A stretch of 64,000 bases of DNA from an uncultured Bacilli bacterium. GTDB taxonomy: Bacteria > Bacillota_I > Bacilli_A > RF39 > UBA660. Shown here piece by piece: positions 3,836 to 52,008 of this stretch. Location: the NCBI GenBank assembly GCA_934167465.1, contig CAKPKR010000001.1, positions 287,030 through 351,029 of the forward strand. The letters are read 5' to 3'. Position 1 is the first letter of the stretch. Each line of letters starts with the position of its first letter. The position numbers and the translations under genes are program-made. The notes below the pieces were generated by a model that worked only from the letters and a program-made list of their open reading frames with translations, ran no database searches and had not been told where the DNA came from.

Positions 3836-4864
3836 TTAATTTCCTAAAAAAATAATTCTTGCAAATCCATCTCCAATGTTTGAATATTCTATTATTGATT
3901 TATTACTAACATTTGTACTATTTATTGTTTTAGTATTTTCTTCAGCAGATTCTTTACAATTATAGCAATATATTTTTTTATTTTTTAATAAGTTATTTCC
4001 AATATAACTTGAACCTCCACCAGCAGAATAAGGGGTACAACCACCTCCATAAAGTCCACCTCCACCTCCTACTCCAGCACAAGTAGCACCTTGACCAAAG
4101 GAACCAATTGAATGATAAATTGGATTTGTATTTCCTCTACTATCATAAAAATTTCCTCCAGATGTTTGTGATGCACCAATTCCATATAATGTTACTGTAC
4201 CTTCCTTATAAGAATCGCCATTTACACCTTGAATACCTCCACCATTACCACCAGAACAAGCCATAATTGCTGCATTAGATCCACCTCCGCCTCCACCTGA
4301 TGCAACAATATAAATTGATGATAATTTTTTGCTTAATGTGGAAAGTAAGCCGGATTCTGATGCTATATGAGTTGCTCCTCCACCTGATGCAGTTAGTACA
4401 TGGCCATCATTGTCAATTTTAGCATCTCCACCACCATTATATCCACCTTTAAAAGCTTTATGTTCACCATTTCCTGAACCAGAACCTCCAACATTTATAT
4501 ATAATTTACTACCTTTTTGTAAAGTAATTTCTCCTGTTGCATATGCTCCATATCCACCTGTTTTAGATGAAGTAGACGCACCGCCTTGAGCACCCCATAC
4601 ATCTAATCTGTATTTACCATTATATGGAACTATAAATATTTGTTCAGTACCTGTGTATAAAAAATCATAAACTACTGAAAATTGATTATTTTTTTTATTA
4701 TATAATTCATTTAAAGCATCATTTACGCTCATACTACTTCCGTCACTGGCATTATATACTACATCACTTGCTTTATATATTGTTGCGGCATAGACTCCTA
4801 GCCCAGTAAATATTATTCCACATATTACTATTAAAAATATTCTACTTTTTATTATTTTTTTCAT
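3836..4864 (-). CDS. secreted glycine-rich protein (Gly_rich-like domain). The N-terminal 55 aa are shared with the paralog at 5183-5734.
   Basis: N-terminal signal anchor MKKIIKSRIFLIVICGIIFTGLGVYA. Body includes VWGAQGGAS...YINVGGSGSGNG...IYIVASGGGGGGS...GGGGGLYGGGC. The ORF-track start at 4891 adds 9 aa. I prefer the ATG at 4864 because of the RBS AGGTGA, identity with the paralog start, and a consensus promoter upstream. Confidence 0.8.
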   Translation of the reverse strand: MKKIIKSRIFLIVICGIIFTGLGVYAATIYKASDVVYNASDGSSMSVNDALNELYNKKNNQFSVVYDFLYTGTEQIFIVPYNGKYRLDVWGAQGGASTSSKTGGYGAYATGEITLQKGSKLYINVGGSGSGNGEHKAFKGGYNGGGDAKIDNDGHVLTASGGGATHIASESGLLSTLSKKLSSIYIVASGGGGGGSNAAIMACSGGNGGGIQGVNGDSYKEGTVTLYGIGASQTSGGNFYDSRGNTNPIYHSIGSFGQGATCAGVGGGGGLYGGGCTPYSAGGGSSYIGNNLLKNKKIYCYNCKESAEENTKTINSTNVSNKSIIEYSNIGDGFARIIFLGN

Positions 4865-4956: not shown

Positions 4957-5172
4957 ATGGAAATAAAAAGAATAAAAGATTTAAGAGAAGATCATGATTT
5001 ATTACAAAAAGATATAGCAAATATACTAGAAATTACTCAGCAACAATATAGTTTATATGAATTAAATATAAGAGATATGCCTTTAGATTTATTAATTAAA
5101 TTAGCTGATTATTATAATGTATCAATTGATTATATTGTGAATAGGACAAATAATAAACAAATAAAAAAATAA
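4957..5172 (+). CDS. XRE-family HTH transcriptional regulator (71 aa), paralog of 933-1133
   Basis: HTH LQKDIANILEITQQQYSLYELNIRDMP with RBS GGTGA. Divergent from the Gly-rich gene and convergent with the paralog at 5183. Confidence 0.75.
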   Translation: MEIKRIKDLREDHDLLQKDIANILEITQQQYSLYELNIRDMPLDLLIKLADYYNVSIDYIVNRTNNKQIKK

Positions 5173-5182
5173 GTTTTTAAAC

Positions 5183-5734
5183 TTATTCTATTTTATAAAT
5201 AGCAGCTACGGCTCTACCATAAAATGTTCCATATTCCATATATTCTGAAACAGTTATCGTTGACGAATTTTCCACAATACAAATATATATTTCAGCAGCA
5301 CTACTTCCTCTACCAGCTTTGTGTGAATTTGTCTCATTATAACCATTTCCTTCATGCCAAACTGATATTCTATCTATTTTTGTTATTGAACTACAACCTG
5401 TTACATTTGATAAAGCACTATATTCTGTAGTTGCTGCTGAAAATAATATAAAGTATTTTCCTTGTTCTAATGTTTTAGTTAAAAATACTTTATCTGCAGA
5501 ACCTGATATACCTGTTGAAGCTGTTGCAATCTGTGTTAAATTAAAATTTGTTAACTTATCTCTATTATTATATAATTCATTCAAGGCATCATTTACATTC
5601 ATACTACTTCCATCACTGGCATTATATACTACATCACTTGCCTTATATATTGTTGTGGCATATACTCCTAGCCCAGTAAATATTATTCCACATATTACTA
5701 TTAAAAATATTCTACTTTTTATTATTTTTTTCAT
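5183..5734 (-). CDS. secreted protein paralog of 3836-4864. It shares the N-terminal 55-aa module but has an unrelated 125-aa C-terminal domain.
   Basis: The first ~165 nt are nearly identical to the 5' end of 3836-4864 (MKKIIKSRIFLIVICGIIFTGLGVYA(A/T)TIYKASDVVYNASDGSSM(S/N)VNDALNELYN), after which the two diverge. Confidence 0.7.
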   Translation of the reverse strand: MKKIIKSRIFLIVICGIIFTGLGVYATTIYKASDVVYNASDGSSMNVNDALNELYNNRDKLTNFNLTQIATASTGISGSADKVFLTKTLEQGKYFILFSAATTEYSALSNVTGCSSITKIDRISVWHEGNGYNETNSHKAGRGSSAAEIYICIVENSSTITVSEYMEYGTFYGRAVAAIYKIE

Positions 5735-19407: not shown

Positions 19408-19451
19408 TGATAAAAAACTTGCTAAAAAAAATAAAATATTATATATTATTA

Positions 19452-19530
19452 ATGACACAACATTTATATTCGAACCAGGTCAGATGAGGAATCAAGCAGC
19501 CTTAAGATTCACTAAATGTGTGTGTCTTTT
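19452..19530 (+). ncRNA. ffs: small signal-recognition-particle RNA (4.5S/ffs-like hairpin). Boundaries are approximate.
   Basis: Domain IV core CCAGGUCAG...GGAAUCAAGCAGCC matches the conserved 4.5S motif. The flanks GACACAACAUUUA / UAAAUGUGUGUGUC form the long helix. Promoter TTGCTA-17-TATATT upstream and a U7 run downstream. Confidence 0.55.
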
Positions 19531-19549
19531 TTTATAATTGGTGATGAAA

Positions 19550-31974: not shown

Positions 31975-32197
31975 TTACATATTGAAAAGTTATGAAGGAA
32001 AGAGAAATAATTGAATTTTTAAAGAGAACTAGTGGTTGGTGTAAACTAGTAAAATTTATTATTTTAAATGGTTCTGGAATTGTTTAAGTGAATAATTAGC
32101 TTATACCGTAAATATGCGTTAAATATAAGAGGTAGATTTATCTATGAATTAAGGTGGTACCACGTGAACTACGTCCTTATTAGGATGTAGTTTTTTT
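31975..32197 (+). promoter_or_regulatory. T-box riboswitch leader (probably Met-specific) with terminator
   Basis: T-box motif AATTAAGGTGGTACCACG at 32147-32164 (consensus AATTAGGGTGGTACCGCG). Terminator CTACGTCCT-tatt-AGGATGTAG followed by T7 at 32169-32197. Stem I candidate at ~31990-32060 with AUGA at 31991-31994. Confidence 0.6.
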
Positions 32198-43791: not shown

Positions 43792-44307
43792 ATGAAAAAA
43801 ATATTATGTTTATTAATAATCATATTTGTAATTGTTACGAGTGTTAAAGCAAGTAATTTTGTTATTCCTGATGATGCTATTAGAATAAGAGTAATTGCTA
43901 ACAGCAATAGTGAATATGATCAAAATATTAAATTAAAAATAAAAGAAATGTTAGAAATAAAAATGTATAATTTATTAAAAGATATAAAAGGTGTAGAAAG
44001 TGCTAGAACTATCATCAATAATAATCTGAATAGTATTGAAAATGATATTAAGAATATTTTAGAAAATGAAAATTATACTTTAGGATATAATATTAGCTTT
44101 GGGGACAATTATTTTCCTAAAAAGGAATATAAGGGTGTAACGTATGAAGAAGGTTATTATGAATCATTAGTAGTTACACTAGGAAGTGGTGAAGGCGATA
44201 ATTGGTGGTGTGTTTTATTTCCACCACTATGTTTATTAGAGGCTGAAGAAAGTGAAGAAGTTGAATATAAATTTTTTATTCAAGAATTATTTGATAAGTA
44301 TTTTTAA
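43792..44307 (+). CDS. spoIIR: stage II sporulation protein R (SpoIIR family)
   Basis: Signal peptide, then IRIRVIANSNSEYDQNIKLKIKE and the hallmark GSGEGDNWWCVLFPPLC. Start at the ATG at 43792 (RBS AGGAG). Confidence 0.7.
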   Translation: MKKILCLLIIIFVIVTSVKASNFVIPDDAIRIRVIANSNSEYDQNIKLKIKEMLEIKMYNLLKDIKGVESARTIINNNLNSIENDIKNILENENYTLGYNISFGDNYFPKKEYKGVTYEEGYYESLVVTLGSGEGDNWWCVLFPPLCLLEAEESEEVEYKFFIQELFDKYF

Positions 44308-44355
44308 AAAGTAAAATTTTTATATATAAATTATTAAAAACTTCATAAAGAAGTT

Positions 44356-44708
44356 TTTTTGTCGGAATTTGTATGTAAAAAAATAGATGAAAATAATAAA
44401 AAATATAGCAGAATATAAAACGATATATTTAATTGGTGTTAGTGCATTTCTTCTTAAAAGAGGGCGGTGATATTATGACAAAAAGAGAAATATCTTTATT
44501 TTTAATAATAATTTTATTATTTGTTATAATTTTTACTTTATTATATAGATAATAAAAATTGCACTATCACAGGGGGGATAGTGCTTTCCAAAAACATTTT
44601 AGGAATGTATCTAACTCTTTAGACAATTAGATATATCCTTTTTTATTGTATGAGCAATAACTCATCTATATACATAGTAACACTTTAAAAAATTTTTTTC
44701 AAGTTTTT
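44356..44708 (+). repeat. copy A of a duplicated ~350-bp module: sORF + hairpins + terminator + convergent antisense promoter. See findings.
   Basis: About 85-90% identical by eye to 52009-52358. Confidence 0.75.
44475..44552 (+). CDS. 25-aa hydrophobic peptide MTKREISLFLIIILLFVIIFTLLYR (candidate type I toxin)
   Basis: ATG preceded by AGAGGG. Single TM-like segment. A paralogous sORF with the same length and frame lies at 52128-52205. Confidence 0.4.
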   Translation: MTKREISLFLIIILLFVIIFTLLYR

Positions 44709-44785
44709 CATAAAAGATAGTTCATAATATATTTTTATTCATAAAATGGAAAGCTCTTAATATTATAGATTAGGAGGTTTTTTTG

Positions 44786-45310
44786 ATGCCAATAATTATA
44801 TTAATAGGAATTAGTCTTAGTATGGATGCATTTAGTTTAGCTTTAGCTTATGGAACATTAAATTTAAAAAATAAGGATATTAATACATTATCAGTTATAG
44901 TAGGTTTATATCATTATTTTATGCCATTATTAGGTATGTTTGTTGGCAAAAAAATAATCTCACTTTTACCAATAAGTCCAGCTTTTTTAATATTTATAGT
45001 TTTATTTTTAATTGGACTTGAAATGATAATTGAGTCATTTAAAGAAGAAACAGAAATAAAACAATTAAATCTATTTGAGATGTTAATGTTTGGATTAGCT
45101 GTTTCCATTGATAGTTTTTCTTTAGGATTAGGATTAAAAACATTGTATAAAAATCCATATATAGCAACACTTGTATTTTCTATTTCTAGTTTATTATTTA
45201 CATATTTAGGATTAAAATTAGGAACAAAAATAAATCAAAAAGTAGGAAATATTTCAACAATAATAGGAGGTATTATACTCATAATAATAGGTATAATTTA
45301 TTTAGTGTAA
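44786..45310 (+). CDS. MntP-like manganese efflux pump family (DUF204) membrane protein
   Basis: SMDAFSLALAYG motif repeated (SIDSFSLGLGL). RBS GGAGG. Confidence 0.65.
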   Translation: MPIIILIGISLSMDAFSLALAYGTLNLKNKDINTLSVIVGLYHYFMPLLGMFVGKKIISLLPISPAFLIFIVLFLIGLEMIIESFKEETEIKQLNLFEMLMFGLAVSIDSFSLGLGLKTLYKNPYIATLVFSISSLLFTYLGLKLGTKINQKVGNISTIIGGIILIIIGIIYLV

Positions 45311-48122: not shown

Positions 48123-48202
48123 TTTCATTGCTTTTTATGTTATAATATAAGAGCATTAAATTTCTATGACTAATGTTAGTCATGGCGGAAGGAGATAGTA
48201 AT

Positions 48203-51933: not shown

Positions 51934-52008
51934 AAATTCACTTATTAGTGAATTTTTTGTAGTTATTGATAATGGCATTGTTTAGTAGTAATTATATATT
52001 AGGAAAAA

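Follow-up and report, generated by a model that had tools for sequence, protein, structure and literature searches.

A candidate type I toxin-antitoxin-like locus belonging to a multi-copy chromosomal family of uncultured gut Bacilli

Between spoIIR and an mntP-like gene, the genome of an uncultured Bacilli bacterium (assembly GCA_934167465.1, contig CAKPKR010000001.1) carries a compact intergenic module at positions 44356-44708 of the window, which is the whole 64,000-nt stretch of DNA analysed here (positions 287,030 to 351,029 of the contig). The question raised by this locus is whether its small open reading frame (sORF), hairpins and opposing promoter-like sequences form a single functional unit and, if so, of which kind. 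An initial annotation had proposed a type I toxin-antitoxin (TA) architecture of the fst/RNAII, txpA/ratA and bsrG/SR4 kind, composed of a hydrophobic 25-residue sORF, a Shine-Dalgarno sequence (SD) embedded in an imperfect hairpin, a hairpin following the stop codon, a 5'-3' fold-back, a strong sense terminator with a T6 run and a leftward promoter opposing them. Every element that it named was found at the coordinates given there, and the comparative data reported below support the architecture. The module, hereafter copy A, probably (with a probability of about 0.7) belongs to a family of type I TA-like loci that is present in several chromosomal copies, as judged from sequence comparison; the type I architecture and the evolutionary behaviour of the family are supported, and the peptide is a putative toxin.

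The putative toxin would be encoded by the sORF MTKREISLFLIIILLFVIIFTLLYR (44475-44552, + strand, 25 codons plus stop), whose product is characterized by a polar N-terminus, about 16-17 hydrophobic residues and a C-terminal lysine or arginine (K/R). This layout is constant in the family, with the polar MTKRExS first and positions 8-23 hydrophobic in 20/20 versions. In the close copies the 25-codon frame is free of insertions and deletions in 14 of 15 cases, while the flanks do carry them, and the start codon alternates between ATG and GTG with a fixed spacing from the SD. Among the 20 distinct and diverged versions of the open reading frame (ORF), the proportion of synonymous differences (pS) is 0.50, near saturation, and that of nonsynonymous differences (pN) is 0.22, giving a pN/pS of 0.45; nucleotide diversity at the three codon positions is 7.6/4.6/8.8, the second position being the least variable, and in 18-20 of the 20 ORFs the other two frames are interrupted by stops, the sORF frame alone being open in all 20. 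The close copies taken alone are weakly discriminating (pN/pS 0.44 vs 0.54 in frame +1), and the wider family is needed. From this pattern of substitution the sORF behaves as a coding sequence. As the initial annotation had remarked, the protein is not a recognisable one: no Pfam or NCBIfam model matches the peptide, including toxin models at an expectation value (E) of up to 10, and a full-text literature search with the peptide motifs returned no relevant paper. A longer reading of 39 codons from TTG 44433 was rejected, as many copies have an in-frame stop between the TTG and the ATG, and the 25-codon ATG/GTG start is preferred because the SD is properly spaced from it.

These data bear directly on the possibility that the module is a non-coding dispersed intergenic repeat, similar to miniature inverted-repeat transposable elements (MITE) or repetitive extragenic palindromes (REP) or consisting of a portable promoter-terminator cassette, whose 25-codon frame would be fortuitous. 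Such a repeat would be multi-copy and intergenic, assemblies would often break inside it, as they do, and it would account for two lineages that are frameshifted yet retain their RNA features. However, exactly 25 codons stay open in 20 versions at ~50% synonymous divergence, the SD spacing is fixed, the ATG/GTG start is kept, variation is lowest at codon position 2, and an inverted-repeat scan and the alignment of the copies showed no terminal inverted repeats; a purely non-coding nature is thus highly improbable.

In the type I reading, the sORF would be transcribed from a sense promoter predicted at 44387-44414 (+ strand), with a -35 ATGAAA (44387-44392), a 16-nt spacer and a -10 CAGAAT (44409-44414). 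In every subfamily a -10 of the TARAAT or TATAAT form, often with TGn, is located 5-7 nt upstream of segment A, the predicted extreme 5' end of the mRNA. The transcription start site (TSS) is placed at ~44420, in the range ~44420-44422, because of the position of the -10 and because a 28-nt block that is invariant in the 15 close copies begins there. The -10 of copy A has C for T at its first position, where every other copy has TAGAAT or TAAAAT, and the toxin promoter of copy A may be weakened. An upstream ORF of 27 codons (44387-44470) was also discarded: its start lies inside the predicted -35, before the TSS, no SD precedes it, and two related loci (L014 and L021) lack the ATG. Further upstream, the box TTTTTGTCGGAATTTGTATG (44356-44375, + strand, about -64 to -45 from the predicted TSS) delimits the repeat unit on its 5' side. 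It occurs exactly a second time in the window at 52009-52028, with 0.03 chance matches expected, and is kept in 15/15 copies of the subfamily of copy A and absent from the other subfamilies. The conserved 5' boundary of the initial annotation therefore does recur, but it lies upstream of the predicted sense promoter and outside the RNA; an UP element, an operator and the edge of the repeated unit are possible identities of this 20-nt box.

Within the predicted leader, the anti-SD UCUUCUU (44449-44455) faces the SD AGAGGGCGGUG (44459-44469, core AGAGGG 44459-44464) in a + strand hairpin found in the minimum free energy (MFE) structures. The two arms change in step between subfamilies (CCUUCU/AGAAGG, CCUUUCU/AGAAAGG, CUCCUU/AAGGAG), so that the hairpin is kept through compensatory changes, and in ensemble models the SD has a mean unpaired probability of 0.11-0.18 whatever the state of the 3' untranslated region (UTR). 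At the other end of the mRNA, the sense terminator h2, GGAAUGUAUCUAA...UUAGAUAUAUCC (44602-44638, + strand), is followed by U6 (44639-44644); a hairpin with a T-run is present at the h2 position in most relatives with differing stem sequences. The predicted sense mRNA would thus be ~230 nt long (~44420-44645), and its fold is more stable than that of shuffled sequence (z = -5.96). No known RNA family accounts for these structures: an Rfam scan of the window at gathering thresholds found nothing at the module, in a permissive scan of 44250-44850 with E up to 10 the sole match, to the PyrG leader, was due to chance (18 bits for a cut-off of 65, E 9.4), and Rfam had no match in 14 related loci.

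The predicted mRNA also has a long-range clamp between its 5' and 3' ends. Segment A, CGAUAUAUUUAAUUG (44421-44435, + strand), pairs with the 3' arm of h2 (44624-44638), and segment B, GUGUUAGUGCA (44436-44446, + strand), with the 5' arm of the post-stop hairpin h1 (44560-44570), the latter being the fold-back foreseen in the initial annotation, complementary in copy A and sustained by compensatory changes. The first pairing corresponds to the inverted repeat I2 and forms the outermost helix of the MFE structure, with an ensemble probability of ~1; the second corresponds to the inverted repeat I6. Both are kept in subfamilies with entirely different stem sequences. In particular, segment A is GGGUACAUUUGA pairing with UCAAAUGUACCC in L038, GAUAGGCUUGAA pairing with UUCAAGCUUAUC in L035 and AGAAGCUA pairing with UAGCUUCU in L037, and the segment B variants UCAGAUGC, CAAGUGC, GGGUACU and UAUCAGGU each fit their own hairpin.

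Covariation at the two helices is extensive. In helix 1 (segment A) 92.5-96% of the cells of the alignment are paired and in helix 2 (segment B) 75-88%, with 7-9 pairs changed on both sides in each. A raw MAFFT alignment of 17 loci has 85% of cells paired and 14/20 pairs changed on both sides; none of 500 shuffles was as good (0/500), and slid controls reached 30-48%. The corresponding values of a hand-curated alignment are 92.4% and 18/25. An alignment-free duplex test on 15 loci gave mean energies of -38.4 kcal/mol for cognate 5'/3' UTR pairs vs -26.8 kcal/mol for non-cognate ones, the cognate partner ranking first in 9/15 loci and in the top three in 13/15. Moreover, segment A resembles the reverse complement of the h2 3' arm better than the 5' arm of h2 itself does (means of -14.6 vs -9.4 kcal/mol), which argues for an intramolecular clamp rather than for an antisense target. 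With the two helices and the SD hairpin, the modelled mRNA appears to be stable yet poorly translated.

On the opposite strand, the leftward promoter of the initial annotation is composed of a -35 TTGAAA (44702-44697), a 17-nt spacer, TGT and a -10 TACTAT (44679-44674), spanning 44674-44702. In the 15 close copies the TG and T1, A2, A5 and T6 of the -10 never vary, and positions 3 and 4 do (TACTAT, TAATAT, TATTAT, TATCAT). The diverged subfamilies have TTGnnn-17-TGnTAnnAT at +113 to +126 after the stop codon, with two short variants at ~+72, and the positions of the antisense promoter and terminator are conserved in ~24/26 copies. The terminator is the hairpin h1, GCACUAUC-loop-GAUAGUGC (44561-44584), followed on the - strand by AAUUUUUAUU, the whole occupying 44553-44584; h1 was the only terminator-like match in the scan of the region (0.0 expected) and was called on the - strand. 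The A-run between the stop codon and h1, present in all members, is the U-tract of this minus-strand terminator. As a U-run follows h1 on the - strand only and h2 on the + strand only, the bidirectional terminator that the initial annotation had assumed to be shared does not hold: h1 and h2 each end the transcript of one strand and the other reads through.

The antisense RNA predicted from this promoter and this terminator is the putative antitoxin, of ~115 nt (44552-44667, - strand), and is composed of a 5' stem-loop followed by the complements of h2 and of h1, the last acting as its terminator. Because the terminator lies right after the stop codon, the RNA would cover the 3' UTR and end at the stop codon. 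The convergent antisense RNA of the initial annotation is therefore upheld as regards its predicted promoter, terminator and overlap with the mRNA, but the overlap, ~95-100 nt of perfect complementarity, concerns the sense 3' UTR only and not the ORF. The RNA folds into three stem-loops with z = -5.77 vs shuffled sequence. Its 5' stem-loop (44650-44665, - strand) is AUGAG-loop-CUCAU in copy A and GAAGA/UCUUC, GGAA/UUCC or GCAAA/UUUGC elsewhere; RNAalifold predicted nothing for it, the short stems being out of register in the alignment, and it rests on inspection locus by locus. Segment B could in principle pair with an arm of the antisense terminator.

The conservation of the minus strand is relevant to another explanation, in which the toxin mRNA is governed by its own folding alone, the minus-strand promoter is non-functional or drives an unrelated RNA, and the hairpins are simply terminators or stabilisers. 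The occlusion of the SD, which in the models is independent of the 3' UTR state, and the frequency of promoter-like matches in DNA of this composition are in its favor. It is nevertheless very unlikely, since the minus-strand -35, the 17-nt spacer, the TG and positions 1, 2, 5 and 6 of the -10 are kept amid diverged surroundings, and the U-run of the post-stop hairpin is on the minus strand only in all members.

The candidate TA module is repeated both inside and outside the window. A second complete copy (copy B, 51998-52370, + strand), 88-93% identical to copy A, has a sense -10 TAGAAT at 52062-52067, the sORF MKEREKSLFLIILLLFFIIITLLYK at 52128-52205, h1 at 52214-52235, h2 at 52250-52286 with T6 at 52287-52292 and, on the - strand, an antisense -10 at 52327-52322 and a -35 at 52350-52345; it is located between a DUF1146 gene and an unrelated gene of 285 aa. 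A scan of a genome collection with a 19-nt pattern found at least seven copies in CAKOTA01, a Hadza metagenome-assembled genome (MAG) titled 'uncultured Bacilli bacterium' (the taxonomy of copy-bearing MAGs is that of the record titles), three of the seven being in tandem with a 350-bp period (a triplet in L021), and five further copies in the MAG CAZXOH01. The family is thus multi-copy, sometimes tandem, with at least 12 more copies in two MAGs. CAZXOH01 is titled 'uncultured Muribaculaceae'; its module-bearing contigs (L012, L013, L016, L018, L020) are at 23-27% guanine plus cytosine (GC), L013 shares the spoIIR-rlmH-yycJ synteny of the Bacilli window, and these contigs are probably mis-binned or the MAG is mislabelled. 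A match of the same pattern in Lederbergia citrea (L011) is due to chance, with no module there.

More distant members were reached through proteins. When the two peptides of the window were used in an exhaustive profile search, 23 proteins were retrieved, each matching at its C-terminal end only; these are over-extended ORF calls in which the last 25-30 residues are the peptide and the preceding part is an in-frame translation of the SD. None of the 23 is named, and most are singletons on short contigs. Their contigs and one metagenome scan, for which a closer set of 7 peptides was used, the alignment of 21 peptides being too diverse, gave 15 more diverged loci at 22-29% GC, including a tandem pair of diverged modules in L032; a word-indexed protein search with three concatenated peptides gave one weak match. 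The contigs that encode the SpoIIR protein of the window come from human gut metagenomes and many of them stop inside the module, as expected because the module is a repeat. No module match was found in plasmid, phage and viral collections. One diverged member (L029:988-2087, and L030) lies ~400 bp from an IS110-family transposase gene and is the sole copy seen beside a mobile-element gene.

The genomic context of the copies answers the question of whether the module acts in cis on the mntP-like gene downstream, as a regulatory leader or riboswitch that senses, for instance, manganese. Genes of the mntP class are often preceded by a riboswitch (e.g. yybP-ykoY), and copy A is directly upstream of its MntP-family gene. 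Nevertheless, no Rfam family matches the module, a full terminator and an opposing promoter lie between the module and mntP, and the other copies are beside unrelated genes. In fact, the neighbours are unrelated housekeeping genes (smc, dnaE-like, spoIIR, rpiB/DUF1146, ychF, trmB, ackA, uvrA, gltX): 3' of the other copies are the unannotated 285-aa ORF (copy B), dacB-like, ychF, dnaE-like and gltX, 5' are smc, uvrA, ackA and trmB, and the downstream gene is different at every site. The module is thus not the leader of one gene family, a possibility that the initial annotation had set against its own proposal, and the distribution of the copies refutes this explanation, whose residual probability is practically negligible. 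In one strain an extra ORF of 157 residues without a Pfam match stands between the module and the mntP-like gene (L008:2737-3210).

The way in which copies decay is informative on the relation between the two halves of the putative TA locus. Four contigs of different sample origin (L003:10562-10940, L004, L007, L008) have, at the spoIIR site, a T5-to-T4 frameshift that cuts the ORF to 9 codons, and an independent frameshift in L028:3001-3057 leaves 18 codons. In L005:6196-6308, a deletion between 9-nt direct repeats TATATAAAT took the sense promoter, the 5' UTR and the ORF, and the antisense half is retained, now directly after spoIIR. The recurrent frameshifts and this deletion give the only indirect hint at a toxicity of the peptide. 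An intact ORF with the antisense half lost was not seen in this small sample, the chimeric L034 excepted. Loss of the toxin is therefore tolerated and loss of the antitoxin is not seen, as a TA pair predicts, within the limits of a small sample.

The same coding and antisense evidence would equally suit a real small membrane protein with a cis-antisense RNA that is not a TA system, that is, a benign accessory or regulatory peptide tuned by its antisense. The peptide lacks the charged tail that many type I toxins have at their C-terminus, and it matches no toxin family, as this alternative would have it. It is nonetheless unlikely: at least seven dispersed or tandem copies per small genome, a presence that varies between strains, repeated frameshifting and the retention of an orphan antisense half are what one typically finds with TA loci and not with a housekeeping small protein, and the heavy silencing by SD sequestration and a 5'-3' clamp is typical of toxin mRNAs.

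Several observations weigh against the assignment of the module to a type I TA family. As regards the peptide, its pN/pS of 0.45 is moderate, with frame +1 of the 20 ORFs giving 0.59, and constraints from RNA structure may contribute to it; a single charged residue is at the C-terminus, unlike the polar tails of many type I toxins; and both frameshifted lineages (the L003 type and L028) keep all RNA features, which could point to a greater importance of the RNAs than of the peptide. As regards transcription, both module promoters are consensus matches, and promoter-like matches are common in this AT-rich DNA of 25% GC (8 found vs 6.5 expected). As regards the RNA structures, the curated covariation alignment has four groups of rows re-registered by hand. 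Finally, the antisense RNA showed no cognate-specific pairing with the region where translation starts (-32.8 vs -30.6 kcal/mol, mRNA 5' part), and the modelled accessibility of the SD is unchanged with the 3' UTR blocked, so that folding suggests no translational effect of the antisense RNA.

A mechanism compatible with these features can be proposed for the candidate TA locus. The sense promoter would give rise to the ~230-nt mRNA for a 25-residue single-helix membrane peptide, and the convergent extended -10 promoter to the ~115-nt antisense RNA ending at the post-stop hairpin. The terminator hairpin would form during transcription and the mRNA would afterwards refold into the 5'-3' clamp, in which the helices of segments A and B enclose the whole ORF, while the anti-SD adjacent to the SD would mask the ribosome-binding site. 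As pairing with the start region is not cognate-specific, the ~100-nt 3' overlap is the likely site of antisense contact: the antisense RNA would pair with the hairpins of the 3' UTR, probably starting loop to loop, and the long sense/antisense duplex would lead to cleavage and decay of the mRNA by an RNase III-type activity, keeping peptide synthesis off as long as the antisense RNA is made. The RatA, SR4 and SR5 systems offer the analogy (PMC3531473) by which RNase III would cut the long duplex of the module. From the sequences we infer the production of both RNAs, the toxicity of the peptide, repression by the antisense RNA and the nuclease involved.

The arrangement of the clamp suggests a further step. 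The antisense RNA and the mRNA 5' end would compete for the same arms of the 3' UTR; segment A differs little from the part of the antisense RNA that corresponds to it (13/15 nt identical in copy A), and antisense binding should therefore displace the mRNA 5' end from the clamp. The displaced 5' end would be open to 5'-end-dependent decay (RNase J/Y), at the same time as a substrate of RNase III is created, and the displacement itself may promote decay. To our knowledge, such a 'clamp-opening' action of an antitoxin is undescribed for type I systems. The combined proposal that the antisense RNA acts by driving the mRNA 5' end out of the clamp rather than by masking the ribosome-binding site, and that the ~365-bp unit spreads without a linked transposase, is a tentative and rather doubtful one.

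Gene callers overlook peptides as short as those of type I systems, whose RNAs are in addition poorly conserved; for this reason, nearly all known families are from cultured Proteobacteria and a few Firmicutes. The module family comes from uncultured gut Bacilli of very low GC content, and its natural variation is sufficient to define the predicted peptide, promoters, terminators, SD hairpin and two-helix clamp from the sequence alone. It offers a ready model for antisense control through the 3' UTR of an mRNA whose 5' end would pair with the same 3' UTR. There are also practical consequences for annotation and assembly: the sORF is un-annotated in most assemblies and elsewhere over-called as spurious proteins of 43-99 residues, and the repeat breaks many metagenome assemblies.

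Other features of the window include a direct repeat of 179 nt, 94% identical (4686-4864 and 5556-5734), with which two minus-strand genes begin, for a glycine-rich 351-residue protein and a 183-residue one, the repeat covering their signal peptide and initial ~60 codons; a small XRE-type helix-turn-helix gene (4957-5172) adjoins the 351-residue gene. Rfam matches are a T-box leader (31983-32181), a small signal recognition particle (SRP) RNA (19444-19540), an L31 ribosomal-protein leader (48164-48194) and a tRNA (63475-63547).

Among the known type I systems closest to the module are Fst/RNAII (par of pAD1) and SprA1/SprA1as, which likewise have promoters that converge, a toxin mRNA of ~230 nt whose peptide has ~30 residues, an antisense RNA overlapping this mRNA at its 3' end only, an SD-hiding 5' stem-loop and a sequestered 5' end (PMC7472228, PMC8594479). 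According to T1TAdb, the antisense RNAs of Gram-positive type I loci are at the 3' side, and only those of Fst/RNAII and SprA1/SprA1as avoid the ORF (PMC8594479); in Fst loci the SD is covered by a 5' stem-loop, and the very 5' terminus is sequestered in a helix (PMC7472228). However, the module peptide differs from Fst/Ldr in having no tryptophan (W) beside a charged tail, no PXXXG and a single C-terminal K/R, and two unidirectional terminators are predicted where Fst has one shared bidirectional terminator. The predicted overlap is ~100 nt, unlike in Fst, the 5' end pairs with the 3' arm of the terminator itself, and a second complementarity to the start region of the DRa/DRb type was not detected in the module (-32.8 vs -30.6 kcal/mol). 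The likeness to Fst in the SD hairpin and the 5'-end helix is an analogy of function and not evidence of homology.

With the Bacillus subtilis families txpA/RatA, bsrG/SR4, bsrE/SR5 and yonT/SR6, the module shares a convergent antisense RNA of ~100 nt with perfect 3' complementarity and, as expected for the module, a duplex-dependent decay of the mRNA (PMC3531473, PMC5848175, PMC8594479). In contrast, the antisense RNAs of these families also overlap the ORF (PMC8594479), whereas that of the module would cover the 3' UTR only; they are located on prophages or prophage-like elements, whereas the sites of the module are core chromosomal; and no similarity of peptide or RNA to TxpA/RatA, BsrG/E/H and YonT is found in Pfam, NCBIfam and Rfam. 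An mRNA closed on itself through pairing of its two ends and an anti-SD that masks the ribosome-binding site recall hok/Sok and aapA1/IsoA1 (PMC5416894, PMC6733600, PMC9841398). These are, however, Gram-negative systems in which the antisense is inside the mRNA and targets its 5' or initiation region, while the antisense of the module is at the 3' side and extends past the mRNA 3' end; moreover, their activation needs 3' trimming, a processing not known for the module mRNA, and the antisense of the module would target the 3' UTR of the clamp itself.

Type I loci are often duplicated, frequently in tandem and at intergenic sites (Fozo et al. 2010, PMC2887945), and the module family displays this trait, which is typical of type I systems without defining them. 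The sORF also falls in the type I range of about 20-60 codons for a hydrophobic peptide with a predicted transmembrane helix, and at the sequence level the module has an antisense gene with a promoter and a terminator of its own. On sequence comparison the module is probably of the type I kind, outside every named family; as it departs from the features by which the named families are recognized, it is filed as a separate type I form and not as a member of one of them.

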